Shown in pieces: positions 15,000-31,121 of a stretch of DNA of 64,000 nucleotides. The DNA lies in NCBI GenBank assembly GCA_963837965.1, contig CAWIPY010000004.1, positions 175,335-239,334 of the forward strand, written 5' to 3'. The DNA comes from an uncultured Pseudomonadota bacterium (GTDB lineage: Bacteria; Pseudomonadota; Alphaproteobacteria; Rhizobiales; Xanthobacteraceae). A model generated the notes under the pieces. The model searched no databases. It was given only the letters and a program-made list of their open reading frames with translations, and was not told the DNA's origin. Position 1 is the first letter of the stretch; each line of letters opens with the position of its first letter. Position numbers and translations under genes: made by a program.

Positions 15000-15075
15000 G
15001 CCCAGGTAGCTCAGTTGGTAGAGCACGTGACTGAAAATCACGGTGTCGGTGGTTCGATTCCGCCCCTGGGCACCA
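15000..15075 (+). tRNA. tRNA-Phe(GAA)
   Basis: GCCCAGGTAGCTCAGTTGGTAGAGCACGTGACTGAAAATCACGGTGTCGGTGGTTCGATTCCGCCCCTGGGCACCA. Confidence 0.97.
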
Positions 15076-16503: not shown

Positions 16504-16640
16504 GGTCCGGTTTCTAATTTTTTTTGGAGGACGTGGCCAGACTTCGTCTTATTAGGGTGACAATGATGACGCCGTTTCTACTTGGGCCTAGCACCGAGGG
16601 CCCCCGGGCCGGGTCCCAATGCCAGCCCCTGTAGAGATTG

Positions 16641-16794
16641 TTTTTCACAAAATATCTGTTTTGCAATCGTTTTTCATGAGATATTGTGATTTTTCAGGAA
16701 GGTCGCCAGATGTGATGGTTTTTCGCAAGGAGCGATCGTTTTTCATGAAAAATGGCCAGCAACAGCGTTTTTCAGGGCCGGTGACGGTTTTTCA
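16641..16794. repeat. Phased array of seven TTTTTC(A) motifs, spacing alternating 29/20 bp
   Basis: T5 starts at 16641, 16670, 16690, 16719, 16739, 16768 and 16788. Confidence 0.75.
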
Positions 16795-18304
16795 CGAAAG
16801 GAGGCTTCCGGAGACGGGGACCCCTGTGGGATATGCCGCCCTCACCGACGCCTACGATCTGCCCGTGCCGCTGCCGCGCACATTATCGGCCATCGGAACG
16901 CGGCACAGGATTATCGAGGAGGCCGGCTGGCGCCTCTACACCCCCCGGCACGAGCCGGCGGCGACGCTGGAGGGCCACCTGACCTTTGCCCTCAAGTACG
17001 AGGGACTCGACCTTGCGGTATTGAAGCGGCTGTTCCTGGCCACCGGCCCGACCCCGATCGAAGCGCTTGTCCGCGCCACCCCGACGGGCAGCTACGCCCG
17101 CCGCATCTGGTTTTTGTATGAGTGGTTGACGGGAAACCAGCTCGATCTGCCCAATGCCGAGCGCGTCACCTACGTCCCGGTTGTTGATCCCGATCAGCAA
17201 TGGGCCACGGAAGGGGAGAATTCCGCCCGGCACTGCGTGCGCAACAACCTGCCGGGCACGCCTGAGTTCTGCCCGCTCGTTTTCCATACGGCAGCGCTCG
17301 ATCAATATCTTTCCCTCGATCTGGCCGCGCGCGCGCGCGCGGTCGTTAGCGCCGTGCCGCGCGATCTGCTTGCGCGCACCGCCGCCTTCCTTTTGCTGAA
17401 GGATTCAAAGTCGAGCTACGTCATCGAGGGCGAACGCCCGCCACAGGACCGCATCCAGCGCTGGGGCCGGGCAATTGGCGAGGCAGGGCGCGCGCCCCTC
17501 GACCTCGATGAGCTTCTGCGCCTGCAAAAGATCGTCATCGGCGACGAGCGCTTTGTCCGGCTCGGGCTGCGGCGTGAAGGCGGCTTTGTCGGCGAGCATG
17601 ACCGCGACACCCAGGCCCCGATTCCGGACCATATCAGCGCCCGGCCCGAGGACCTGGACTCCCTGGTCAGCGGCATGATCGCTTTCGACCGCGCGGCTTC
17701 GGACAATCTCGATCCCGTCATGGCCGCCGCGGTGCTTTCGTTCGGCTTTGTGTACGTCCATCCGTTCACGGACGGAAACGGCCGGGTCCACCGCTATCTG
17801 ATCCATCACGTTCTTGCCCGGCGCGGGTTCAACCCGCCCGGCGTCGTCTTCCCGGTGTCGTCGGCCATTCTCGACCGGATCGACGATTACCGCGAGGTGC
17901 TGGAGAGCTATTCGCGCAGGCTCTTGCCTGTCATCAAGTGGGAGCCGCTGCCGGATGGCAATGTGCGCGTCCTGAACGATACCGCTGATTTTTACAGGTT
18001 TTTCGACGCAACCCCGCATGCCGAATTTCTCTATGGCTGCGTCCGCAAGACGATTGAGGAGGACTTGCCCAACGAAACAAGGTTTTTGGAAAGGTCCGAT
18101 CGCTTCCGCAGCGGCATCGAAGCCATCGCCGATATGCCCGACCGGACGCTCAACAATCTCTTCGGCTTCCTGCGGCAAAACGGTGGGCGCTTGTCCAAGC
18201 GCGCGCGCGAAACTGAATTCGCCGCCCTTACGGAACACGAAATCAAGCGTATTGAAGAGGTCTACGCGGGCGTCTTTGGCGAAGCCGTTGAGACTCATGA
18301 CTGA
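16745..18304 (+). CDS. Fic family protein
   Basis: Canonical HPFTDGNGRVHR motif; start chosen at ATG 16745. Confidence 0.92.
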   Translation: MKNGQQQRFSGPVTVFHERRLPETGTPVGYAALTDAYDLPVPLPRTLSAIGTRHRIIEEAGWRLYTPRHEPAATLEGHLTFALKYEGLDLAVLKRLFLATGPTPIEALVRATPTGSYARRIWFLYEWLTGNQLDLPNAERVTYVPVVDPDQQWATEGENSARHCVRNNLPGTPEFCPLVFHTAALDQYLSLDLAARARAVVSAVPRDLLARTAAFLLLKDSKSSYVIEGERPPQDRIQRWGRAIGEAGRAPLDLDELLRLQKIVIGDERFVRLGLRREGGFVGEHDRDTQAPIPDHISARPEDLDSLVSGMIAFDRAASDNLDPVMAAAVLSFGFVYVHPFTDGNGRVHRYLIHHVLARRGFNPPGVVFPVSSAILDRIDDYREVLESYSRRLLPVIKWEPLPDGNVRVLNDTADFYRFFDATPHAEFLYGCVRKTIEEDLPNETRFLERSDRFRSGIEAIADMPDRTLNNLFGFLRQNGGRLSKRARETEFAALTEHEIKRIEEVYAGVFGEAVETHD

Positions 18305-19070
18305 CATTCCGAAGCCGATTCTTGCTTTCGCCGACGATCTAAAAAAATCATGCCGGTACTGCGCTGCGATTTCATACATCGCAACAAGCCGATTGCCTGG
18401 TCAGCCAATCCCGGAGCCGAACGACCCGACTGCGACGGCGACATTTATCCAGTTCCGTGGGCAGACATATGCGGTGACAGCGGCGCACGTTGTCAAAGAC
18501 TTCCGCGCCTCGGTACCCGATCCGCATAACTACACTTTTTTCATTCCAAAGGCTCCGGGCCACGCCCTTTCCGACTGCTTTGTGCAGCCTCCAGCAGGTT
18601 TAATCAGCGGGCAACCGGACATCGCGATCAGAAGAATCAAGCCAGACCTACTGCCCCATATCGGAAAAGAAGCCTTTCTGCTGACTGACGATGAGCAGCC
18701 TGCCGAATTCCCCTATGCGTTGGCGGCAGGCTATCCGACGGCGCGAAAATCGAAAAAAGCCGACCCAAAAGGGTGGCAAGTTGCAATGGAATGCTGCCAC
18801 GCCATTGCGGAAGGCGTTTCACGCGGGCATGGCGACCAGGTACAGTTTTACAGCGAAATAGCAGACCAGCCGGAGGTTTCGTCTCTAAGCGGAATGAGCG
18901 GCGGCCCGGTGTTTTGGAGTGGTGACGACGAGGCGTATGGACTGATCGGTATCGTTAAACAGGCCATGAGTAACGAAACAACTCCGCAAACGCTCGGAGC
19001 GGCCCGAAAGTTCATTTCATCTGTCAGCGCTTTTCTGCCGCCGAATTCGAGAACTGGGTTACCGCCTTGA
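18297..19070 (+). CDS. Trypsin-like serine protease, no signal peptide; possible C-terminal frameshift
   Basis: VTAAH, QPDIAI and GMSGGP give His/Asp/Ser triad motifs; overlaps the fic stop (ATGACTGA). Confidence 0.8.
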   Translation: MTDIPKPILAFADDLKKSCRYCAAISYIATSRLPGQPIPEPNDPTATATFIQFRGQTYAVTAAHVVKDFRASVPDPHNYTFFIPKAPGHALSDCFVQPPAGLISGQPDIAIRRIKPDLLPHIGKEAFLLTDDEQPAEFPYALAAGYPTARKSKKADPKGWQVAMECCHAIAEGVSRGHGDQVQFYSEIADQPEVSSLSGMSGGPVFWSGDDEAYGLIGIVKQAMSNETTPQTLGAARKFISSVSAFLPPNSRTGLPP

Positions 19071-19219
19071 ACTAGACGGTCGCCCGCAATTGTCCGCGGT
19101 TCGATTCCCAAAACCGGAATCGCATGGTGGGGCAGGGATGGCAGAAACGCCTATAATCATACAGGATAGTTAGCTGCCCCACTTTTCGGTAAGCGATTGA
19201 AATCGTTTGATGTCTGTAC

Positions 19220-19400: not shown

Positions 19401-19790
19401 TCACACATCGGCCACTGCAATCGCTTCGATCTCTACACGCCATTCGGGTCGCGCCAGCGCGCTCACGATAAGCAAAGTGGAGGCGGGCTTGTGTCCGCCG
19501 AGAAATTCCGACCGAATCTTTCCGTAGGCGGAAACATCTCCTGAACTCGTCAAGAACGCGGTGACCTTCACGAGATCATTGACGCTCATCTGCGCTGATT
19601 TAAGAACATCGATCAGATTTCTCCACGCCTGCCGCGCCTGCGAATCAAAATCGGCCGCGGCTTTTCCCGTCGAATCGGAACCGATTTGTCCCGAAACGTA
19701 GAGCGTCCGGCTCTCCCCGGAGATCAGCATGCCCTGGCTATAGGAAAGAACAACATCCGCTTCAGGAGACGGCGAGATAGGCTTTTGCAT
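19401..19790 (-). CDS. Rid (YjgF/YER057c/UK114) family protein lacking the catalytic Arg
   Basis: LYVSGQIG, LVKVTAFL and VEIEAIA; PAST where RidA has PARS. Confidence 0.9.
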   Translation of the reverse strand: MQKPISPSPEADVVLSYSQGMLISGESRTLYVSGQIGSDSTGKAAADFDSQARQAWRNLIDVLKSAQMSVNDLVKVTAFLTSSGDVSAYGKIRSEFLGGHKPASTLLIVSALARPEWRVEIEAIAVADV

Positions 19791-19800
19791 AAGAATCTCC

Positions 19801-20652
19801 TCAAAACTCCAGCATTCGGTCGACTGATTTCATCATCGGGCCATCGATTTTTGCCAGTTCATCCAGCACGGTGAAGTGATTGCAGGCAACGACTTCGTCA
19901 TAAGAGGCGCTTCCCTTGCGGGCCTGCCAGGCGACAACGAGCTCTTTCGTCCACTGTTTGAACCCGCTCGTCTCATCGCTCCCAACCAGCCCAACCAAGG
20001 GCATCAGCTTGGCACCTTCGGCGATCTTGTTGAGTCGCAGCAGTGGGCTGGCTGCAGCCGCTTCATCTGCGGATAGGCCCAAGTCGTTGTTGACCGATGT
20101 TCGCAGCAGCGGGCGCAGATCGTACACTCCGCTGATTCCTACAACGCCGACGATAGGTCCTGCCCCGGCCACGATCTGGTCAATCGCCAACATAAGGGCA
20201 AGCTGGCCTCCGGCTGAATGGCCGGCGACAACGACGCGATCTGGCCTAAGCCGCCGCATCGCCCAGCCAAATGCCGCGCGTAGCTGTTGAACGATCTCGT
20301 GGACGCTCACTGCAGGGGCCAGGTCATACGTCGGCAAAACGACCGTAATGCCCTTGCTCTGGAACGGTTGAGCAATGAACGAAACGTAGGATTTGTCCAA
20401 TGCCCGCCAATAGCCGCCATGAACGAAAAAGAGCACAGGTGCATCCTTGCCGGCCGGGAAGATATCGAGCAGGCAACGAGGTCCGTCGGCATAGCGCAGA
20501 TCCAGTTCGCAATTCTTCAAAGCCCGAAACGATTCACTTCGTTGTTGATGGTTCAGGTAGATTTCGCCCCTCTCAGGGTGCCGCTGCCGAAGCGCATATT
20601 GCGCTTCCAGCACCTCATCGATCGTTGAAAGCGCACTATTGCCCGGCATCAT
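19801..20652 (-). CDS. Alpha/beta hydrolase, arylformamidase (kynurenine formamidase)-like
   Basis: HGGYW oxyanion motif, GHSAG nucleophile elbow, SGVYDL and NHF motifs. Confidence 0.85.
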   Translation of the reverse strand: MMPGNSALSTIDEVLEAQYALRQRHPERGEIYLNHQQRSESFRALKNCELDLRYADGPRCLLDIFPAGKDAPVLFFVHGGYWRALDKSYVSFIAQPFQSKGITVVLPTYDLAPAVSVHEIVQQLRAAFGWAMRRLRPDRVVVAGHSAGGQLALMLAIDQIVAGAGPIVGVVGISGVYDLRPLLRTSVNNDLGLSADEAAAASPLLRLNKIAEGAKLMPLVGLVGSDETSGFKQWTKELVVAWQARKGSASYDEVVACNHFTVLDELAKIDGPMMKSVDRMLEF

Positions 20653-20655
20653 CCC

Positions 20656-21369
20656 TTAAATTCCCAAATAAGCGGATTGCACCGAAGGATCCTGAGCAAG
20701 CGAGGTGCTCGCGGCACTCTGCACGATTCTTCCTTCGGTAATGACGTATCCCCAGTCGGCTGTTTGTAAGGCCATATTGGCGTTCTGTTCTGCGATCAGT
20801 ATCGTCATGCCTTCCTTGTTCAGACGCCGGATGGTGGCGAAAATGTCTTGTACGACGCGCGGCGCCAAGCCCATGGACGGTTCGTCGAGCAGCAATAACT
20901 GCGGCTTCGCCATCAAAGCCCGGCCGATCGCCAGCATCTGCTGTTCGCCGCCCGACAGCAGTCCAGCGGACTGCTTTTCTCTCTCACGAAGACGCGGGAA
21001 AAGGTCGAATACCATTTCCAAATCGCGGGGCACCTTTGGGTCGCGCCGCGGCCAAAGCCGCCGAAATGCGCCCATTTCGAGGTTCTCACGTACGCTCATC
21101 GGCGCAAAAATGCGCCGGCCTTCGGGAACGAGGGTCATGCCATGATCGAGCCGCGTTGACGCGGACGCGGAAGCAATTTCATTGTTGTTTACGCGGATGC
21201 TGCCGGTGCTTGCTCGCAGCAAGCCGGCCAGACAGCGCATAAAGGTCGTCTTGCCGGCACCGTTGGCGCCGATCAAACAGACGCATTGGCCCGCGTCTAC
21301 ACGCAAAGAGAGGTCATGCAGCACTTGAACGCTGCCATAGCCGGCATTCAGCGCGTCGACCTCAAGCAT
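20656..21369 (-). CDS. Branched-chain-type ABC transporter ATPase (LivF-like)
   Basis: GANGAGKT, LSGGEQQ and LLLDEPS motifs. Confidence 0.93.
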   Translation of the reverse strand: MLEVDALNAGYGSVQVLHDLSLRVDAGQCVCLIGANGAGKTTFMRCLAGLLRASTGSIRVNNNEIASASASTRLDHGMTLVPEGRRIFAPMSVRENLEMGAFRRLWPRRDPKVPRDLEMVFDLFPRLREREKQSAGLLSGGEQQMLAIGRALMAKPQLLLLDEPSMGLAPRVVQDIFATIRRLNKEGMTILIAEQNANMALQTADWGYVITEGRIVQSAASTSLAQDPSVQSAYLGI

Positions 21370-22135
21370 GTTTGGTCTCGCCCAAATACGCGGTTATGAC
21401 GTCCGGATTGCGCCGAACTTCCTCGGCTGAACCCTGGGCAATGCGCCAACCGTTGTTGAGCACTAAAATATCGTGCGAAAGCGACATGACCATGCGCATG
21501 TTATGCTCGACCAATAGCACCGTCATGCCGCTTCGGTTGAGCTCTGAAATTGTCTTGCCGACTTGCTCGGCCTCCTGTTGCGGCAGGCCCGCGGCCGGCT
21601 CGTCAAGCAGTAAGAGCGTTGGCTCGCATGCGAGAGCGCGTGCCAGCTCCAGCAATTTCATTTGCCCGAAGCTGAGATCGTTCGCCAGAACGGAGGCCTT
21701 TTCGATGAGACCGAATCGCTCCAAGAGGTGCATGGCCGAGTCAGTCATCGCGCGCTCCTCTGCACGAGACTTCGGGCCACGCAGGACCGTTGCGATCACG
21801 CCCGTCCTGCCGTGCAGGTGACGTCCCACCATCACGTTTTCGAGAACTGTCAATTCGCGAAATATCTGCAAATTTTGGAACGTACGCGCGATACCCAATT
21901 TGGCACGCCGGTGCGTCGGCAGATTGTCGATACGCTGGTTCTCGAACCAGATGGCGCCCGAGGTCGGGCGCGTGACGCCGGCGATCATGTTAAAAAGCGT
22001 GCTCTTCCCCGCGCCATTCGGGCCGATGACTGCCTTTATCTCGCCGGGCGCGACGCCGAAGCTCAGATCGGCGACGGCGCGGACACCCTCGAACTGGCAA
22101 TTGAGTCCTTCGACCCGCAGCAGAAGGTCGGTCAT
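21362..22135 (-). CDS. Branched-chain-type ABC transporter ATPase (LivG-like)
   Basis: GPNGAGKS, RTFQN, LLLDEPAAG and LVEH motifs; start at MTDLLL. Confidence 0.93.
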   Translation of the reverse strand: MTDLLLRVEGLNCQFEGVRAVADLSFGVAPGEIKAVIGPNGAGKSTLFNMIAGVTRPTSGAIWFENQRIDNLPTHRRAKLGIARTFQNLQIFRELTVLENVMVGRHLHGRTGVIATVLRGPKSRAEERAMTDSAMHLLERFGLIEKASVLANDLSFGQMKLLELARALACEPTLLLLDEPAAGLPQQEAEQVGKTISELNRSGMTVLLVEHNMRMVMSLSHDILVLNNGWRIAQGSAEEVRRNPDVITAYLGETKHA

Positions 22136-23121
22136 CTCGACCTCGCGCGTGCAATTCGCCCACGAATCGCTGCCGGTACACCGGCTAACCCGGAGGGTAG
22201 CATAATCAGCACGATCAGCATCGCCAGACCGAACAGCATCAGTTCCGCATCTTCGTACTGAAGCAGCAGTTGAGGGACCGCCGTATAAATCAGGGCGCCG
22301 AGCAATGGTCCCCAAAATGTGCCGCTGCCGCCGATCGCGACCATAACAACCAACAAGATCGAATTGGATACGCTGAACGTTTCGGGCGACGCGAACTGAT
22401 TTATATGAACGTAAAGACTACCCGCAAAACCGGCCATTCCGGCCGTCAGGACGAAGACGAGGAGTTTCGTGCGGAAACTGTCCACGCCAACGGCGTCAGC
22501 GCCCAATTCGTTCGTTGCGACAGCCCGCAAGGCCCGGCCCGTCCTTGAGTGCAACAGGTTCAGGATAACTACCATCGCGAAATATGATGCCAGCCACACG
22601 ACCGGAAACTGACTGAGATCGGTATTCAGCGCGAAGCCGGCGACGGAAAATGGGTTTACTCCCAACAAACCGTTCGGACCGCCGGTGACCGAAATCAATC
22701 TGTTGAAAAATACAACGAGGATCGCGTTCCAGCCGAGGGTGGCCATCGAGAGATACAAACCGCGGAGCCGGAGCGCCGGCATTCCGATCACAAGCGCGGC
22801 TAAGCCGGTGGCCGCCGTTGCGCATGGCAATCCGATCCATGGATTTACGCCAAGCTTTGCATTCAGCGCGCCGCTGACATACGCGCCGAGTCCATAGAAG
22901 CCCGCATGTCCGAGTGAAATCTGGCCACCATAACCCATGAGCAGATTCAGGCTCGCGATCAACATGATGTTTATGAACATCATGTTCGCGAGAGATATGA
23001 AGTAGGCGTTCGGTGCCGCGAGTGGAATGAGGAGGAGTATCAGCCATACCAGGATCAGGCGCAGATGCTCTGTGCGGTTCGTCGGCTTCGGCTTTGGGCG
23101 CGACGAAATTCCCCCTGCCAT
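22132..23121 (-). CDS. Branched-chain-type ABC permease (LivM-like)
   Basis: GYGGQISLGHAGF, LRLRGLYLSMATL and TGRALRAV motifs. Confidence 0.92.
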   Translation of the reverse strand: MAGGISSRPKPKPTNRTEHLRLILVWLILLLIPLAAPNAYFISLANMMFINIMLIASLNLLMGYGGQISLGHAGFYGLGAYVSGALNAKLGVNPWIGLPCATAATGLAALVIGMPALRLRGLYLSMATLGWNAILVVFFNRLISVTGGPNGLLGVNPFSVAGFALNTDLSQFPVVWLASYFAMVVILNLLHSRTGRALRAVATNELGADAVGVDSFRTKLLVFVLTAGMAGFAGSLYVHINQFASPETFSVSNSILLVVMVAIGGSGTFWGPLLGALIYTAVPQLLLQYEDAELMLFGLAMLIVLIMLPSGLAGVPAAIRGRIARARSR

Positions 23122-23197
23122 CTCGACTGACCTGCCATCCGCCGGCGCGGCCGGTCTCGTCCCAGACGAAGTGTTCCAGGGAGCCATCGTCATAGAA

Positions 23198-24079
23198 CTA
23201 TACTTTGACCACATCTGCTCGGCCCAGGAGGCCGGAAGGGCGCGCAAACAGGATGATCAGAAGGACGGCAAAGGCTATCGCGTCTTTAAAGTCGGAAGAA
23301 ATGTAGTAACTGCCGAATGCTTCGAGAAGGCCGAGCGCGATGCCCCCGGCGATCGCGCCCGGAAGACTGCCGATGCCTCCGAGCATCGCCGCACTGAACC
23401 CTTTGAAGCCGAACATCACGCCCTGGTCATATGACGAGAGCGTCAACGGTGTGATGATGGCGCCCGCCAATGCGCCGGCAAATGCTGCAATGGCAAAAGA
23501 GAGCATCACGGTGGTTTCGACGCGCACCCCGACGATCGCCGCGGCGTCGCGGTCCGCGGCGGCCGCACGCAATGCCTTGCCGATTATCGTCCACTCGAAG
23601 AAGACGTGCAGGATGAACAGAAAGGCGAGCGTCAAGCCGACGACCCACAGGGTCTGGCTCTGTACGGTGACGCTGCCAAAGCTGAGCGTGGTCGGCTGAG
23701 AGAAACTCGGATATCCGACAGGCCGCTTGCCGAGCACGAGCATGGTGAGGCTTCGCGTGGAAATCGCGAGGCCGATGCTGACCAGGGTTATCAACAGCGC
23801 GCTGGGCCGCGGGAGCGGCCAAATCACCAATCGCTCCGACAATATGCCGACGGCGGTCACAATCAGAACGGCGGCAACACAGGCAAGCCCGATGCTGTTG
23901 AAGGTAGCAAAAAGCAGCGCCGAGACCATCCCGCCCATAACGACCCATTCGCCCTGCGCAAAGTTCATGGCGCCGGTGCTTTTGAACACGACGTTGAACC
24001 CAAGGGCGATCAGCGCATAAATGCTGCCGCTGCCAATTCCTGCAACAATCAATTGCAGGACAATCGTTCCGGTGTGCAT
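23198..24079 (-). CDS. Branched-chain-type ABC permease (LivH-like)
   Basis: GSIYALIALG, NFAQGE, GKALRA and KGFSAAMLGG motifs. Confidence 0.92.
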   Translation of the reverse strand: MHTGTIVLQLIVAGIGSGSIYALIALGFNVVFKSTGAMNFAQGEWVVMGGMVSALLFATFNSIGLACVAAVLIVTAVGILSERLVIWPLPRPSALLITLVSIGLAISTRSLTMLVLGKRPVGYPSFSQPTTLSFGSVTVQSQTLWVVGLTLAFLFILHVFFEWTIIGKALRAAAADRDAAAIVGVRVETTVMLSFAIAAFAGALAGAIITPLTLSSYDQGVMFGFKGFSAAMLGGIGSLPGAIAGGIALGLLEAFGSYYISSDFKDAIAFAVLLIILFARPSGLLGRADVVKV

Positions 24080-24087
24080 CTGGACCG

Positions 24088-25023
24088 TCAGAATGTTCGC
24101 ATGCGGTTTGTTTCGAACATCGGTAGAACGATGCCGAATTCGGCGAGCTTCGTCCGCGCGTTGGCCACGTAGTTCGCCAAGGTCTCCTCTTCGGCTCTTC
24201 GCGTGGCGCCGCCCAATCCTGCGGCGGCCGTGAGCGCATCGGCCTCGGCCTCGACCGTGGCGTGTTCCGGGGCCAACCAGGGGCAGTGATACCCCTTCAA
24301 CTCCGTTTCGCGGACGTAATCGGTCAGTTCTTCACCGATAAGCGACCGCTCTTCTGCGGTCCAGTGCGGTGCGCGCGACTGAAGGTAGAGCCAGCCGAAC
24401 GCGGCATGGCGCTCCTTGTCTGAGATGATGTGGTCGAGCACCGCCCCGACGGCCGCATTACGGGTCCCTTTGCGCCAGGTCCGGCAAAGCTCGAGCTCAA
24501 GACCATCCTCGAAGGCGCAGAAACTGGCAACGTAGCTGTCGAGATGTTGCTCCGCATCCATGACGCGGCGGTGGAGATTTCGATTGAAGGTGGCTTGATA
24601 GTCGGGATTAGCCGGGCTTTCGATGCGTCCACCGAAAGACTCGGCAATCCTGTCGAAACACTCCACATGCCAGGCTTCTTCGGTATTGCGCACAGTCAGG
24701 TAGAATTTCGAGTCGATTTCCCGGCCGGTCTCCATGCAGAATCGCATTAGCAGTGCCGGCGTTTCGGTCAGGCCCGTGGCTTCCACCCAGAGGCGACGGC
24801 TCCATGTCCGTCGTGCCGCATCGCGCTCTTCCGGGGTGTACCGGTCCGACAGCAACGCGTCCCAGCCGATACTCCGGTGCGGGTTCCAGCGTCCCGCCTT
24901 GCCGCTGTCATAGAGCTGCCGAATCTCGGGCAGCGTTACATTCATTTCCAGGGGGAAGCGCCGCTCCACCAAAAGGCGGAGCGGCGGTAGCGACTCGCCT
25001 CTATTTTCGACCACCGTCGACAC
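24088..25023 (-). CDS. Ferritin-like diiron-fold protein, degenerate paralog (subunit B)
   Basis: VEATG, EEAWH, FEDGLE and DKERH (Lys in place of the second motif Glu); aligns by eye with 25025-25978; GTG start 1 nt after the upstream stop. Confidence 0.8.
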   Translation of the reverse strand: MSTVVENRGESLPPLRLLVERRFPLEMNVTLPEIRQLYDSGKAGRWNPHRSIGWDALLSDRYTPEERDAARRTWSRRLWVEATGLTETPALLMRFCMETGREIDSKFYLTVRNTEEAWHVECFDRIAESFGGRIESPANPDYQATFNRNLHRRVMDAEQHLDSYVASFCAFEDGLELELCRTWRKGTRNAAVGAVLDHIISDKERHAAFGWLYLQSRAPHWTAEERSLIGEELTDYVRETELKGYHCPWLAPEHATVEAEADALTAAAGLGGATRRAEEETLANYVANARTKLAEFGIVLPMFETNRMRTF

Positions 25024-25024
25024 G

Positions 25025-25978
25025 TCAGATCGCCCCAAGCTTAGGATGGCTGAATGGCGGGAGATTGATGCCAAGCGGCTTCATCTGATCTCGAATGCGC
25101 TTCACCGTGGAGATGAAGACGGGCTTTTCGGCTTCTTCGACTGTCGCCCCCAGTCCCGCTTCATAAGTAATGCGGTCGGCTTCGACCTCCGCGAGCGAGG
25201 CCGGATTCTCCGGAGCAAGCCAGCTGCTGTGATAACCGTTGAGCTCGACCTTTTCCATCATCGTAATGACCGAGTTTTCGATCATCTTCTTCTGCTCGGG
25301 CGTCAAGGTTTCGCAGATGGCCTCGAGGAAGTACCAGCCGAAGGCGCAGTGCCGAGACTCGTCGCGCATGATGAAGCGTACGACCTGTTTTGCGACAGGG
25401 TCGCGCGTAACATCCTCAAGATGGCGGAAGACGTCGAAGGCGATTTCTTCGGCAGTACAGACCAGTGCCGCAATGATTCCTTCGAGTGGAACGTCCTCAT
25501 TAAGGGTCGCACGGCGAACGCCGTGCGTCGATACCGACCCCTCGAAAAGCTGCTGCACGGGCTTTTCGATGTAGCCGCCCAGGCGTTCCGCCATTGTATG
25601 GCAGACTTCCGCATGCCGAGCTTCCTCCTGGGAGCGGATCGTGAAGAAGAGCTGCATGTCCGAGGGCCGCTTCTCGATCCCGAACCGAAGCTGCAGGGAC
25701 GGGCTTTCGGAAATCGCCCCGTATTCGCTCCATGCACGCCTGCTCCAGTAAAGACGCGCGGCGTAGCGCTGCTCGTCTGTATAGGCTTCAGGATCGAGTT
25801 GATCCCAATCGACATCGGTCTTGGGATCCCATTGGTTTCGTGTGGCCGCGTGAAAAAGCTCACGAATTCGCGGAAGATCGGAATTGAACGTGAGCGGGAA
25901 GCGACTTTCCGGGCCGTCGAGCAGCGTCTGCACCACCTCGAAGGCCTGCTGTTCCGACATATCGCGCGTCAGCGCCAT
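25025..25978 (-). CDS. Ferritin-like diiron oxygenase-type protein (subunit A)
   Basis: SEYGA, EEARH, AEEIA and DESRH match the E / ExxH / E / ExxH carboxylate-diiron pattern. Confidence 0.82.
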   Translation of the reverse strand: MALTRDMSEQQAFEVVQTLLDGPESRFPLTFNSDLPRIRELFHAATRNQWDPKTDVDWDQLDPEAYTDEQRYAARLYWSRRAWSEYGAISESPSLQLRFGIEKRPSDMQLFFTIRSQEEARHAEVCHTMAERLGGYIEKPVQQLFEGSVSTHGVRRATLNEDVPLEGIIAALVCTAEEIAFDVFRHLEDVTRDPVAKQVVRFIMRDESRHCAFGWYFLEAICETLTPEQKKMIENSVITMMEKVELNGYHSSWLAPENPASLAEVEADRITYEAGLGATVEEAEKPVFISTVKRIRDQMKPLGINLPPFSHPKLGAI

Positions 25979-26005
25979 GACGTTTCTCCAACCAGCTAAG
26001 GTCGA

Positions 26006-27175
26006 TCAGGCATAATCGACCAGGTTAAAGCGGCCATCGCGCCAATTGATCAGCACGATGTCTTTTTTCGACAGCCCCGAATGCTTCTTTGGCGAGAAAT
26101 TGAAGACGCCGCTGACGCCGGCGAAATTCCTGATGCTCTCCAACCCTTGCGGCAGCTTCGACACGTCTCCATTGACCTTGTTGAGGCCTTCGCGGGCGAG
26201 CATGAGCGCGTCGTACAATTCTGCCGCATACACGCTGGCTTGCCGTTTGAAGCGTGCTTGATAGCTGTGGAACAGCTTGAGAATGCCCGTTTTGAGAGGA
26301 TCGCTATCGGGCAACTGGTCGCCAACCGGTAGCTTCAGGCTCGCCAGAAGGAGCGGCTTGGCCGCATCGCCGGCAAGCTTCATGTAGTGGGAGGACACGA
26401 AGCCGTAGCTATGAATGAGCGTCCGCTTATCGAGTCCGAGCTGCTGCGCCTGCTTGAGGAACACGACGCCGGCCGGGGTGACCGTCCAGCAGATGATGAC
26501 GTCGGCGCCACTGTCACGCAGCCTGGTCAATTGAGGCATCATATCCGTGTCGGCAGGTCCGAAGGATTCGTAGACCACGTCAAGATGCCGCCGCGGGGCG
26601 ACTTTGTGCATCTGCGTGACCGCACCCTGTCCGAAGCCGCTGGTATCCGCCAGCAGCGCGATTTTCTTGAACTTCTTCTTGATGCAGTAATCAGCGATGC
26701 GTTCGAGCACGTCTTCGTCGTCGACCGTGCTCTTGAAGACCCATTTTCGCTTTTCAACGGGCGTGACGATCTGCAGCGCACCTTCACTCGAGATGAAAGG
26801 CATTTTCGCTGCTTCCGCCATCGGCGCCATCGCCAGCGCGATGCCGCTCATGTTCCCGCCGCTTACAATGAGGTCGACCTTGTCCTGGCTGATGAGCCGG
26901 CGCGTTTCCGAGATGGCCTTTTGCGTCTGGCTTTCCGCGTCATAATAGGTCCAGGCGATCTTGCGTCCGCCGATTCCGCCGCTCGCATTCACTTGGTCGA
27001 CGGCAAGCTGCAGGCCGGCCTTCATATCTTCGCCCAGAAAGGCCGCCGGGCCGGTAACTGAAAGTACCGAGCCGACATGCAGAGGCTTCGTTGCGGCCCA
27101 CACGCTACGCGCGCCCGTTGTCGCCAGCATTGCCCCAGGAATGAGTTGCAGAAAGCTGCGTCTTGCAAGTGTCAC
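26006..27175 (-). CDS. ABC substrate-binding protein (LivK-like), Tat signal
   Basis: MTLARRSFLQ, SVTGPAAFLG and type I periplasmic binding protein pattern; GTG start. Confidence 0.92.
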   Translation of the reverse strand: MTLARRSFLQLIPGAMLATTGARSVWAATKPLHVGSVLSVTGPAAFLGEDMKAGLQLAVDQVNASGGIGGRKIAWTYYDAESQTQKAISETRRLISQDKVDLIVSGGNMSGIALAMAPMAEAAKMPFISSEGALQIVTPVEKRKWVFKSTVDDEDVLERIADYCIKKKFKKIALLADTSGFGQGAVTQMHKVAPRRHLDVVYESFGPADTDMMPQLTRLRDSGADVIICWTVTPAGVVFLKQAQQLGLDKRTLIHSYGFVSSHYMKLAGDAAKPLLLASLKLPVGDQLPDSDPLKTGILKLFHSYQARFKRQASVYAAELYDALMLAREGLNKVNGDVSKLPQGLESIRNFAGVSGVFNFSPKKHSGLSKKDIVLINWRDGRFNLVDYA

Positions 27176-27242
27176 GATATCCCTCCACCGTTTTTGGACT
27201 CCGAATGGGTCCCGTTTGCGCCTTGGTCACTCCCCGGCAAGT

Positions 27243-28082
27243 TCAGTCGTCGTGTATCCCGCTCGTATCTATCCCGCTCGTATCGACTTGGTTTGTAAGG
27301 CCGCCGTCCTTGCGTGAGAGCGGCACATCGAGCGAATAGCGAACGAGATCGGCGCGGTGCACGGTATGCCCCGCGAGCACCAGTCGTCCGTTCGTATCCC
27401 GGTAACGCAAGGTTCGAATCAAGACGGGCGCGCCGGCCGCAAGATGCAGGTACTCGACTTCTTCCGGTCCTGCGATGCCGGCCTCGATGCCAAAGTCGCC
27501 GCTACGAAGCTCGACACGCTGCCAAAGCAAATGCAACGGCGACCCGAGCGCAGAACTTTCGTCCCAGTCGCTGACCAGATCCGCCGGAATGAGTCGGTAA
27601 TCGATCGCGACGGGCACGCGAGCGGCAGCCCGCATTCGCTTAATGAAAAGGATCGGAGTCCCGAGTTCGAGCTCCAATGCGGTCGCTGTCTGCTTATCGG
27701 CAGGTCTGCGCTCGAAAACCAGGACTGTCGGCTGGATCGGGGTCCCGCTCGCCGCCCATTGGCGCATGAAGTCCATGCTCGGCCCGAACCGCTCCTCCAG
27801 CTTGTGGACGGCGACGAAGGTGCCGAGGCCCCGGCTGCGGGTCAGTAGCCCTTCGCGGACCAGCTCCGACAGCGCCTGCCGGACGGTATCGCGGCTGACA
27901 CAGAAGAAGGCGCACAGCTGTTCATCAGAATAGAAGCGGCGGCCCGGCTGATCCCAGCGCAGGATGATTCCGATAAGTCTTTGTTTTATTTGCGCATATA
28001 GCGGTAACGGCGACGCGCGGTCGAGTGGTGGGGTCGTCCACTCATCGTCCAAACTTGTCAGTTTTTCCGACCGATCAGTCAT
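27243..28082 (-). CDS. GntR (HutC/UTRA) transcriptional regulator
   Basis: PLYAQIKQRL, VSRDTVRQALSEL and RGLGTFV; C-terminal UTRA domain; start uncertain. Confidence 0.9.
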   Translation of the reverse strand: MTDRSEKLTSLDDEWTTPPLDRASPLPLYAQIKQRLIGIILRWDQPGRRFYSDEQLCAFFCVSRDTVRQALSELVREGLLTRSRGLGTFVAVHKLEERFGPSMDFMRQWAASGTPIQPTVLVFERRPADKQTATALELELGTPILFIKRMRAAARVPVAIDYRLIPADLVSDWDESSALGSPLHLLWQRVELRSGDFGIEAGIAGPEEVEYLHLAAGAPVLIRTLRYRDTNGRLVLAGHTVHRADLVRYSLDVPLSRKDGGLTNQVDTSGIDTSGIHDD

Positions 28083-28656
28083 AAGCCGAGGACACAACTG
28101 AGATTGCCTGATTGTCTGCTTAATCATACATTCTGGCAAGCTGTTTTCTCTGGCCGAGGAAAAGAAAATATAGTGTCCGCTTGCGCGGCGGCCTTCGGCG
28201 GATCCGGAAAGACTACAGAAACCGACAAAAAACTGCGTGGACTATTCGCGAAATAGATTTCTGCGTCTCGGTGCGCCGAGATGAATATTGCAGTGAATGA
28301 GCCCGGGACTCGTGCCTTACCAATACTGTTTGAATTTTTCCTTTTGCTTCGGCGCGGTCAGCCGATTGGCGCGTTTTGCTCCACGGATCTGGATCGGCAG
28401 TCGATTTGCCATCGTGCGAACTTCCGTCGAGTTGCGATTGCTGTTGAGCGCCAGCGCGGCAGAGGTCGCCCGCGCTGCGAACGAAGCAATGGCTGCGACA
28501 TTGCAGGCTGCCGAAATGGCAACAAGGTCTTCGCGCAAAGTTCGACGGATTTTCCGGCCCAATATGGGACGCTCGCCCGCGTGGCTCTTATCCAAACGAG
28601 GACACTCGCTCACGTGCAGGCGATGGCGGCTTAACGCTTATTGAAGCGGTCGTTGG

Positions 28657-29322: not shown

Positions 29323-29375
29323 ACTTATGGACTTTGGCCGGGGTCCGAATCCAGAGTTCGAAGCAGGGGCCAGCC

Positions 29376-30527
29376 ATGAATCCGAAATCACCGGCAAATA
29401 CGAGCGAGCCGTGGCGCGTTGGCGTTCTCTTCTCCCGCACCGGCTTCATGGCGATCATCGAAGAAACGCAAGTCCATGGCACGTTGATCGCAATCGAAGA
29501 AATCAACGAGCGTGGCGGCATCAATGGCCGCGAACTCGTTCCGGTCATTTACGATCCCGCTTCCGAGAATGCGCTGTTTAGGGCTTATGCGAAGCGCATG
29601 ATCGTTGAAGATCAGCTTTCGACAATCTTTGGTTGCTACACGTCCAGCAGCCGCAAAGCCGTCTTGCCGATCGTCGAGCGGCTGAACTGCCTGCTCTGGT
29701 ATCCGACCCTCTACGAGGGCTTCGAATACTCCCCCAATGTCATCTATACCGGCGCCGCGCCAAACCAGAACAGCGTTTCCCTCTGCCAATTTCTCACCGA
29801 GAAATACGGGAACCGCTTCTACCTTATCGGTTCCGACTACGTATATCCGCGCGAGTCGAACCGGGTGATGCGCGAACTCCTGAACAAACGCGGCGGCCAA
29901 GTCGTCGGTGAGCGCTATGTCGGCCTGCGGGCGTCGCGACGAGACTTCGTCCCGGTCCTCAACGAGATCCGCGAGCTTTCGCCCGACGTCATCTTCTCCA
30001 CGGTCGTGGGCGAAGCCACCATCTACCTCTACCAGGCCTATGCCGATTTCGGGTTCGATCCGCGCAACATGCCGATTGCGAGCCTGACCACTACGGAGAC
30101 CGAAATCCGCGCCATGGGGTCGGACGTGGGCGAGGGCCATATCACGGCGGCGCCTTATTTCGAGGGCTTGCCCGGAGCGGCCAACGACGCCTTTGTGAAG
30201 CGCTACAAGCGCCGCTTTGGCGACGACCAGTCCACCAATATGTGCGTGGAAGCGGCGTATTTTCAGGTCCATCTGTTTGCACGCGCGCTGGAACTCGCCA
30301 ACTCGCTGGATCCGGAGATTCTGCGGCCCATGGTTCTCGGCTCCAGCTTGGAGGCGCCCCAGGGCACTGTTTCGATCGACGCGGGGTGCAGCCATGCCAA
30401 TCTCTGGAGTCGCATCGGCCGGGCAAACGGTCGCGGCCAATTCGACCTGCTGCAGGAATCGTCTTCCCTGGTGCCGCCCGATCCGTTCCTGACCGGAACC
30501 GGCTTCGGCCGGCTGGTCCCAGCGTAA
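29376..30527 (+). CDS. amiC: Cytoplasmic amide sensor AmiC
   Basis: Periplasmic-binding fold without signal peptide; GCYTSSSRKAVLP and YPTLYEG motifs; adjacent to an ANTAR regulator. Confidence 0.88.
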   Translation: MNPKSPANTSEPWRVGVLFSRTGFMAIIEETQVHGTLIAIEEINERGGINGRELVPVIYDPASENALFRAYAKRMIVEDQLSTIFGCYTSSSRKAVLPIVERLNCLLWYPTLYEGFEYSPNVIYTGAAPNQNSVSLCQFLTEKYGNRFYLIGSDYVYPRESNRVMRELLNKRGGQVVGERYVGLRASRRDFVPVLNEIRELSPDVIFSTVVGEATIYLYQAYADFGFDPRNMPIASLTTTETEIRAMGSDVGEGHITAAPYFEGLPGAANDAFVKRYKRRFGDDQSTNMCVEAAYFQVHLFARALELANSLDPEILRPMVLGSSLEAPQGTVSIDAGCSHANLWSRIGRANGRGQFDLLQESSSLVPPDPFLTGTGFGRLVPA

Positions 30528-30542
30528 CGGGAGCGCGCAGCG

Positions 30543-31121
30543 ATGGCGCCGCCGCGGCATGAGACGGAAAAATTATCGGTCCTCGTCGCGGCGGAACGCG
30601 ATGCCCAGGTCGACCTGCTGTTGCGCGAATTGCGGCGAAGCGCCAGCCACGTCATTCACCTGTTTCCGGTGACGGACCGGCTGCCGGCCGAGCACGACAT
30701 CATCCTGGCCGATATCAGTCTCCCATTGTCGGATCAGTTGCCTTGGGTGCCCGGCGAGGCCACCGCCGCGCTGATCCTTCTCCTTCCCGAAAACGGCCAG
30801 CACTCGCTGAAAAAGCTGCGCGCTTGCTGTCCGGACGCGGTGCTCCACCGTCCGTTCCAGCCGAGCGCGATCCTGACGAGCCTGGTGATCGCGCGCAGCC
30901 AGTTCCAGTTCATCCGGCGGCTGCGCAGCCGAATCGCGCGTCTCGACGAGAACATCAAGGCGATTCGCGACATAGAGCGCGCCAAATTGATCGTTATGGA
31001 CATGCGCCGGATCGGCGAAGACGAAGCCTACGCATATTTGCGCAGCCAGGCCATGGAGCGACGCACGACCGTCGCCTCCTTCGCCTCCCATCTTGTTGAC
31101 TCCCACCAACTGCTCGGTTAG
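30543..31121 (+). CDS. amiR: AmiR-type ANTAR antiterminator (pseudo-receiver + ANTAR)
   Basis: C-terminal IERAKLIVM...EDEAYAYLRSQAMERR ANTAR motif. Confidence 0.88.
   Translation: MAPPRHETEKLSVLVAAERDAQVDLLLRELRRSASHVIHLFPVTDRLPAEHDIILADISLPLSDQLPWVPGEATAALILLLPENGQHSLKKLRACCPDAVLHRPFQPSAILTSLVIARSQFQFIRRLRSRIARLDENIKAIRDIERAKLIVMDMRRIGEDEAYAYLRSQAMERRTTVASFASHLVDSHQLLG

Follow-up and report, generated by a model that had tools for sequence, protein, structure and literature searches.

A putative uptake-and-breakdown operon with a paired R2-like dimetal protein in an uncultured Xanthobacteraceae bacterium

What does a bacterium do with two ferritin-like proteins whose genes lie inside those of an ATP-binding cassette (ABC) importer? 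We addressed this question for a ten-gene operon in a 64,000-nucleotide stretch of DNA (the window) from an uncultured Pseudomonadota bacterium of the Xanthobacteraceae (GenBank assembly GCA_963837965.1, contig CAWIPY010000004.1, positions 175,335 to 239,334). The operon encodes a GntR-type regulator, a solute-binding protein (SBP), the ferritin-like proteins DiA and DiB, the importer components LivH, LivM, LivG and LivF, an alpha/beta hydrolase (Hyd) and a Rid protein. On balance, we think it probable that the operon serves the inducible uptake and breakdown of a small nitrogen compound other than a standard alpha-amino acid. The reading of the sequences that is best supported has a new heteromeric branch of R2-like dimetal proteins as the putative key enzyme, with amide hydrolysis as the step that would follow.

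Gene order and its conservation

The operon occurs in single copy in its genome, a soil metagenome-assembled genome of 5.1 Mb that is 94.5% complete. As read from the open reading frames (ORFs), its ten genes all lie on the minus strand, at positions 19401-28139 of the window, and are spaced by 1 to 76 bp or overlap:

28111..28139, minus strand: promoter-like site from a promoter scan, with TTGCCA, a 17-nucleotide (nt) spacer and GACAAT
28113-28130, minus strand: predicted operator TGTATGATTAAGCAGACA, an 18-bp HutC-type palindrome between the -35 element and across the -10 element
27243..28082, minus strand: gntR, regulator gene (Pfam GntR 6e-11, UTRA 4e-23; best NCBIfam match HutC, 1e-28, under its cut-off)
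26006..27175, minus strand: SBP gene, Peripla_BP_6 (Pfam 8.5e-54) of the LIV/HAAT type, with an RRSFLQ...VWA twin-arginine signal
25025..25978, minus strand: diA, ferritin-like protein of 317 amino acids (aa) with weak matches only, to AurF, DUF455 and R2lox
24088..25023, minus strand: diB, no Pfam match, 34% identical to DiA (E = 5e-56)
23198..24079, minus strand: livH-type permease gene (Pfam BPD_transp_2 1.6e-35; NCBIfam LivH 8e-43, under its cut-off)
22132..23121, minus strand: livM-type permease gene (Pfam BPD_transp_2 1.1e-39)
21362..22135, minus strand: livG-type ATPase gene (Pfam ABC_tran 3e-33, BCA_ABC_TP_C 6.5e-10)
20656..21369, minus strand: livF-type ATPase gene (Pfam ABC_tran 3.5e-28; NCBIfam LivF 8e-79, under its cut-off)
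19801..20652, minus strand: hyd, hydrolase of 283 aa (Pfam Abhydrolase_3; HGGYW at residue 78, GHSAG at residue 144)
19401..19790, minus strand: rid, the last gene, 129 aa (Pfam Ribonuc_L-PSP 2e-24)

We looked for this arrangement in one genome per species, kept the best 80 of 128 related places as loci and read the gene order in them by tblastn with the ten window proteins. The order gntR-SBP-diA-diB-livH-livM-livG-livF-hyd recurs in the 80 loci of Alpha-, Beta- and Gammaproteobacteria, roughly half of which also have rid; 67 of the 80 begin with gntR, and diB always follows diA. Carriers include Bradyrhizobium, Xanthobacter, Amorphus, Azospirillum, Acetobacteraceae, Achromobacter, Variovorax, Ottowia, Comamonas and Lautropia, as well as Gammaproteobacteria. 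Since the order recurs across classes and phyla, the arrangement is far beyond chance; the earlier note on this DNA had named a gene order not kept in other genomes as grounds against its reading, and the loci show the opposite. Five minimal loci (L058 from Acidimicrobiales, L064, L069, L073 and L074) lack the ABC genes and keep just (gntR)-diA-(diA)-diB-hyd, which indicates that the core is the DiA/DiB paralog pair together with a hydrolase.

The distribution is patchy and fits an accessory catabolic trait: of the 151 genomes from the taxonomic family to which the window belongs, 5 have the DiA/DiB pair, and the flanks of the operon are not conserved. Patchiness, single copy and unconserved flanks together point to a horizontally mobile accessory operon.

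At the level of single genes, the gaps are 67 bp (gntR-SBP), 27 bp (SBP-diA), 8 bp (diB-livH), 3 bp (livF-hyd) and 10 bp (hyd-rid), and livM-livG and livG-livF overlap by 4 and 8 bp. The diA-diB gap is 1 bp, provided that diB starts at GTG 25023, 1 nt past the diA stop; its frame is open up to TTG 25074, for a length of 311-328 aa. The livM frame is open up to 23247, so that livH and livM are 76 bp apart or overlap, and the likely livM start is ATG 23121, where similarity to orthologues begins. For gntR, an ORF from 28139 (298 aa) would begin inside the promoter and operator, and ATG 28082, where the piece in the earlier note ends, is the likely start. This tight packing on one strand agrees with the earlier note, which had described co-oriented genes with short gaps or overlaps and enzyme genes inside the transporter genes; diA and diB indeed separate the SBP gene from livH and livM. 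Downstream of rid we found no intrinsic terminator, and an Rfam riboswitch search of the window region and seven varied loci gave no match.

The ferritin-like pair

We aligned 81 DiA and 81 DiB sequences and compared their ligand states. Six ligands are invariant in all 81 DiA sequences: E85 or E91, E119xxH122, E177 or E178, and E207xxH210. Together with an AlphaFold (AF2) model (predicted local distance difference test, pLDDT, 80.8), this suggests that DiA is an R2-like ferritin-fold protein with a complete four-carboxylate/two-histidine dimetal site. Foldseek placed R2lox entries (6f6f, 4hr0) at the top (template modelling score, TM, 0.53-0.59; identity 15-18%), followed by the R2 subunit of ribonucleotide reductase (RNR) and the azoxy synthase VlmB. 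By sequence, phmmer and profile searches of DiA against the PDB reached E = 0.008-0.1 at best, and DiA orthologues are 61-93% identical across classes (93% in Bradyrhizobium). An exhaustive profile search of 1.84 billion cluster representatives returned just 779 relatives with E <= 1e-3, of which 59 had E <= 1e-30. Some are A-type proteins, in which ExxH occurs at least twice; the others are B-type proteins, many of which have no such motif. Four long relatives (P0164, P0186, P0150 and P0222) that we considered as domain fusions were frameshifted metagenomic gene calls.

DiB has lost much of the site (residue numbers refer to the 328-aa ORF): the second ExxH Glu is Lys in 72 of the 81 sequences, the helix-3 Glu-Glu pair has become Asp-Gly, and His136 is replaced by Gln in 13. 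The distant pairs of two loci (L083 and L086) follow this pattern: their A subunits, 40-43% identical to DiA, are intact, and the partners have lost every ligand. This repeated pairing of an intact A with a ligand-poor or ligand-less B points to a heteromer in which a catalytic subunit is joined by a scaffold; DiA and DiB would thus form a heterodimer in which DiB is probably the non-catalytic scaffold or structural partner. Of the oxygenase pair "diiron A/B" proposed in the earlier note, DiA therefore retains its full site and DiB does not. Comparable pairs, in which one paralog keeps the site and the adjacent partner has lost ligands, are yeast Rnr2/Rnr4 and PaaA/PaaC. Unlike Rnr2/Rnr4, DiA/DiB has neither an R1 partner nor a radical Tyr (Cys126 stands at His+4); unlike PaaA/PaaC, it has no PaaB/D/E-type accessory protein or reductase, and its heterodimer is read from the genes. 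Across the 80 loci, no reductase or ferredoxin family was conserved in or beside the operon, and the co-encoded reductase, ferredoxin or effector of multicomponent monooxygenases such as PaaABCDE was not found.

The nearest fold, R2lox, has representatives in 4hr0, from Geobacillus kaustophilus, and 3ee4, M. tuberculosis Rv0233; hallmarks of the group are an ether cross-link between Tyr and Val and a bound fatty acid. DiA shares with it an R2 ferritin fold of ~300 aa, the four-carboxylate/two-histidine site with the canonical ligand set E/ExxH/E/ExxH, and the lack of a dedicated reductase gene. The two differ in sequence (15-18% identity; PDB profile E of ~0.008) and in composition, R2lox being a homodimer, while DiA/DiB always pairs an intact with a degenerate paralog within an importer/hydrolase operon. 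As a member of R2lox by sequence DiA was rejected, with 25.1 bits against a cut-off of 194 for the NCBIfam PRK08326 models. It was also rejected as a class I RNR R2 protein because the invariant Cys126 occupies the position of the radical Tyr, H122+4; in E. coli R2 this Tyr lies four residues past the first ligand His (H118/Y122).

Three further features of the pair were recorded. Three invariant DiA cysteines flank the ligands, C126 (His+4), C174 (before E177/E178) and C211 (after H210), and are not kept in DiB. A C-terminal LPxFxHxxLGx(I/F) motif (DiA residues 306-317) is kept even in 40%-identical relatives and, by analogy with the R2 C-terminus, might be a docking tail. In three loci (L064, L073 and L080), two tandem DiA-type genes precede diB.

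Hydrolase, importer, Rid protein and regulator

Hyd carries the oxyanion motif HGGYW, the nucleophile in GHS146AG, His259 and, as the acid, Glu227 or Asp226; among 65 orthologues, HGG(Y/F)W, GHSAG, His259 and Glu227 are conserved. Its PDB matches were 9n8r ('Lipase 1', 1.5e-33), 2pbl (a putative esterase, 8e-33) and 4e11 (4e-19), the Drosophila kynurenine formamidase, with which HGGYW, GHSAG and the catalytic His align at ~72 bits. The earlier note's designation as a formamidase-like hydrolase was thus well chosen, since Hyd falls into the same clade as eukaryotic kynurenine formamidase (AFMID); the bacterial clade differs in keeping Glu227 and not the Asp. Hyd was rejected as a hormone-sensitive lipase of the HaHSL type (NCBIfam NF058665; 170.4 bits against a cut-off of 320). 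Tryptophan 2,3-dioxygenase (TDO, PF03301) and kynureninase (TIGR01814) were not found in the window's 94.5%-complete genome, so a role for Hyd as the formamidase of the kynurenine pathway was rejected too.

The position of Hyd is filled differently in other loci. Five of them (L047, L061, L063, L070 and L080) have, right after livF, no hyd but a gene for an amidase-signature enzyme (PF01425, E ~1e-98), and in two (L046 and L057) a creatininase-family gene lies between diB and livH. Distant A-type relatives adjoin a creatininase-family gene (L083), an Amidohydro_2 gene (L088), or gamma-glutamyltranspeptidase (GGT) and Amidohydro_3 genes with another LIV-type importer (L090). Because differing C-N hydrolase folds recur as the partner, the conserved step appears to be C-N hydrolysis, and the exchange of hyd for an amidase-signature enzyme favors amide over ester cleavage. 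Hyd would therefore be an amide or small-acyl hydrolase; the evidence here does not show the acyl group to be formyl. Two loci stand somewhat apart. The operon of Acuticoccus mangrovi (L029:17005-18687) lacks a hydrolase gene; ~1.6 kb downstream of its livF there is a gene for urocanase. The A-type relative in L090:6607-18483 has no adjacent B paralog and belongs to an IclR-controlled operon that also holds an aldehyde dehydrogenase, GGT, a PF06684 (AA_synth) protein, the full LIV-type importer and Amidohydro_3.

The importer has the same five components and families as the LIV-I/HAAT system (LivJ/K-HMGF) and differs from it in that enzyme genes separate its SBP gene from its permease genes and in that the SBP lacks the residues with which LivJ contacts the alpha-amino and alpha-carboxylate groups. 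The nearest solved relatives of the SBP are 3sg0 and 4dqd (~1e-31). We aligned the SBP and 73 orthologues to E. coli LivJ, at an identity so low that individual columns could be shifted. The LivJ ligand contacts Ser79, Thr102 and Tyr202 (PMC6983066) are replaced by Met109, Ala133 (Ala or Ser in orthologues) and Val232. The position of LivJ A100 is taken by an invariant Glu131. At E226, which we take to be a further LivJ contact, the SBP has Tyr257, and these substitutions are conserved in the orthologues. With the LivJ contacts replaced, the SBP is unlikely to bind a standard alpha-amino acid; the predicted pocket, aromatic or hydrophobic with one Glu and one Asn, is suggestive of a neutral or cationic amide, amine or heterocycle.

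In the Rid protein, Ser104 ('PAS') aligns with the catalytic Arg of UK114/RidA ('PAR'), and this position is Ser or Ala, never Arg, in 34 orthologues, in line with the Arg-less Rid that the earlier note had described. The protein falls below the TIGR00004 and RutC cut-offs of NCBIfam and was rejected as a deaminase of the RidA/RutC type by its hallmark, the essential Arg (Arg105 in RidA, Arg104 in RutC) being absent. The PAST motif is shared by a Rid, 37% identical, that is encoded with the distant DiA/DiB-like pair in L083, and this recurrence suggests that the link between the Rid type and the metal enzyme is not accidental. The simplest reading is that the Rid substrate has no carboxylate, the group to which the Arg normally binds.

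The regulator combines a GntR winged helix-turn-helix with a UTRA effector domain and has the features of the HutC subfamily, including a palindromic operator. The region's only promoter-like site holds the operator TGTATGATTAAGCAGACA, which is conserved upstream of gntR in alphaproteobacterial loci; beta- and gammaproteobacterial loci have the counterpart palindrome TGTCTAGTTAACTAGACA, and a palindrome precedes gntR in most of the 62 loci examined. We scanned the 5.1-Mb genome with a symmetrised position weight matrix: the operator scored 27.6 bits, the next best site 18.9, and no second convincing operator was found. GntR is likely an autoregulated repressor of the operon, and the single strong operator indicates a regulon of one operon. 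Together with the unconserved flanks, this gives substance to the term "self-contained" used in the earlier note. A 10-mer TGTATGATTA equal to the left half of the gntR operator lies at 19154-19163 of the window (minus strand), in the 330-bp spacer after rid; the right half-site is absent, and the 10-mer could be a remnant or due to chance.

Around the operon, we noted a tRNA gene (71.8 bits; window 15000-15072) 4.3 kb downstream of rid, with Fic and trypsin-like protease ORFs (window 16619-19070) between the two. On the other side, an AmiC-like Peripla_BP_5 gene (4e-138) and a 192-aa ORF (window 29334-31121, opposite strand) begin ~1.2 kb upstream of the gntR promoter. An AmiC/AmiR amidase regulon and the Fic/protease neighbors were rejected as partners of the operon, their linkage not being kept in other genomes. 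Other loci have a neighbor of their own: a gene of ~430 aa, absent from the window, is divergent from gntR across the operator-bearing spacer in L053 (6419-7708, minus strand) and in 25 other beta-, gamma- and alphaproteobacterial loci. It gave no Pfam or NCBIfam match; its AF2 model (pLDDT 87) had weak, partial Foldseek matches (best E = 1e-3, TM <= 0.25), PD-(D/E)xK/restriction endonucleases among them, and the gene was rejected as a reductase.

Candidate pathways and their significance

How might these parts work together? In the pathway that we propose, GntR would bind the 18-bp palindrome in its own promoter and be released when the substrate or an intermediate binds the UTRA domain. The SBP, exported by the twin-arginine route, and LivHMGF would import the compound, and a cytoplasmic heterodimer of O2-activating DiA and structural DiB would oxidize it with no dedicated reductase. 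The product would be an amide, probably with a small acyl group of the formyl or acetyl type, which the AFMID-like hydrolase would cleave; the labile amine, enamine or imine set free would be handled by the Arg-less Rid where present, and its nitrogen and carbon would pass into central metabolism. We infer the use of O2, the order of steps, the cleavage of an amide and not an ester, and the catabolic purpose. The earlier note had proposed import, oxidation and deformylation of a small nitrogen compound: the operon does join uptake genes to enzyme genes, and the logic of oxidation, C-N hydrolysis and Rid recurs around distant relatives, and the deformylation version is one plausible sub-case. 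N-methyl oxidation as a source of N-formyl compounds, also put forward there, finds no support here, as such oxidation normally yields formaldehyde.

Several observations weigh against the proposed pathway. A full site on a ferritin fold is not proof of oxygenase chemistry, because R2lox has such a site and no known turnover. The nearest solved relatives of Hyd are annotated as lipase or esterase, so ester cleavage is possible, and the argument from the SBP pocket depends on the register of the LivJ alignment. The rid gene is missing from about half of the loci, the closest Bradyrhizobium ones included. Arg-less Rid proteins have so far had no deaminase activity (PMC4433059, PMC8113886), and the Rid here may not be an imine deaminase at all. 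A sequence search of runs returned only DNA runs from soil and wetland metagenomes and no RNA runs, and we found no description of a ferritin-like or diiron family of this kind in the literature that we could search; the ferritin-like stress proteins in a paper on syringate in R. palustris are unrelated to DiA/DiB.

Among more specific accounts, one has DiA/DiB open an N-heterocycle, as in the Rut, NicX and kynurenine routes, to an N-formyl or ureido enamine that Hyd deformylates and Rid deaminates; we consider this rather unlikely, with some chance of being right. The arylformamidase motifs of Hyd (HGGYW/GHSAG; the 4e11 match at 4e-19) speak for it, as does the aromatic or hydrophobic SBP pocket, whose invariant Glu and Asn would suit a planar amino-heterocycle. 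So does the distant pair of L083, clustered with TenA, a creatininase-family gene, a zinc-dependent alcohol dehydrogenase (Zn-ADH) and a RutC-like Rid, which points to pyrimidine-like substrates; the creatininase family includes a formamide deformylase. The set of oxygenase, amidohydrolase, Rid, alpha/beta hydrolase, transporter and local regulator also parallels the rut operon (RutA-G, RutR). However, no component is orthologous: RutA, a flavin monooxygenase, works with the reductase RutF, and RutC requires Arg104 (PMC8113886), which the window Rid lacks. Moreover, none of the evidence is formyl-specific, enzymes of the amidase-signature and GGT types that take the place of Hyd usually act on larger amides, the L083 context consists of three short metagenomic contigs with one arrangement and an A subunit ~43% identical to DiA, and the absence of TDO and kynureninase means that the kynurenine pathway itself is not at work. 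If hydrolysis came before oxidation instead, an imported N-acyl or O-acyl compound would be deacylated, DiA/DiB would oxidize the freed amine to an imine or hydroxylate it, and Rid or water would end the deamination. Deacylases at the entry step of a pathway are typically exchangeable, as the hydrolases are here (alpha/beta, amidase-signature and creatininase-family types); Rid genes often cluster with those of amine-oxidising enzymes (PMC4433059), and reactions need not follow the order of their genes. We nonetheless regard this sequence of steps as distinctly unlikely: the minimal loci always keep diA-diB-hyd with hyd last, and hydrolysis of 2-imino acids would not be expected of a Rid that lacks the Arg. 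To our knowledge, an R2-like protein acting as an amine oxidase is without precedent.

Two further accounts would change the role of the metal enzyme. In the manner of DnfA or TsnB7, DiA/DiB could N-hydroxylate an amide or amine nitrogen, and Hyd would then free hydroxylamine or an N-hydroxy product, in a process resembling heterotrophic nitrification or serving detoxification. In Alcaligenes, the diiron oxygenase DnfA and the hydrolase DnfC are paired in just this way, taking the glutamine amide nitrogen through a hydroxamate to hydroxylamine (PMC11160463), and DiA passes the Pfam AurF model (PF11583) marginally, with 31.7 bits against a gathering score of 29.6 over residues 116-242 only; DiB gave no match. 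However, AurF, CmlI and DnfA have a three-His/four-carboxylate site with the motif HxxxExxH (PMC9478400). DiA reads I203-M-R-D-E207-S-R-H210 and was rejected as a member of this type; Ile203 is nearly invariant in a 12-sequence alignment, and the position is never His among the conserved columns of the 81 sequences. DnfA also uses a dedicated reductase, DnfB, which has no counterpart here, and the fold of DiA is closest to R2lox and R2: VlmB, at rank 33, was the sole N-oxygenase-type entry among the Foldseek top 50, where AurF and CmlI were not listed. With both the third His and the reductase missing, a DnfA-like route is very improbable. Least probable of all is a non-catabolic role, in which DiA/DiB would bind a ligand or handle metal as R2lox does, or protect against oxidative stress, its linkage to the importer being regulatory. 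In its favor, R2lox, the nearest fold, carries a fatty acid when isolated and is not known to turn over a substrate, and the operon lacks a reductase gene. Against such a role stand the very high conservation of DiA (61-93% identity), the substrate-type regulator encoded beside it with a single operator, and the fact that the pair stays strictly linked to hydrolases and importers, in different phyla as well as among distant relatives.

The uptake-and-breakdown reading can be carried further. Tentatively, and with a modest chance of being right, DiA/DiB would be a new heterodimeric R2-like class that performs reductase-free oxidative C-N or ring cleavage, perhaps of aminopyrimidine-like soil compounds, as part of a Rut-like module that also includes an exchangeable amidohydrolase and an Arg-less Rid and has spread horizontally through Proteobacteria and Actinobacteria. 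The distant locus L083 (1-6288) combines an intact and a ligand-less ferritin-like protein with a creatininase-family gene, Zn-ADH, TenA, the PAST-type Rid and a YeiH-type membrane protein. Its TenA passes the thiaminase II equivalog cut-off (139 vs 130 bits) and its Rid has RutC as best model; the cluster may encode a pathway for thiamine-pyrimidine-like or aminopyrimidine-like compounds.

For the R2-like proteins as a group, the setting of the DiA/DiB family is informative. R2lox has a well-studied Mn/Fe or Fe/Fe cofactor and no known physiological reaction; DiA/DiB comes with an effector-binding regulator and its operator, a dedicated SBP and an obligatory hydrolase partner, and ligand screens on two soluble proteins, the SBP and GntR, could reveal the substrate directly. 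The pairing of an intact with a degenerate subunit adds a new case to the ferritin-like enzymes in which nature uses a scaffold subunit, and a first function for the orphan Arg-less type of Rid could come from one that accompanies the metal enzyme as far as its distant relatives. The carriers, Bradyrhizobium, Azospirillum, Xanthobacter, Achromobacter and Variovorax as well as soil and wetland metagenomes, suggest that the compound may be a relevant source of nitrogen in soil.

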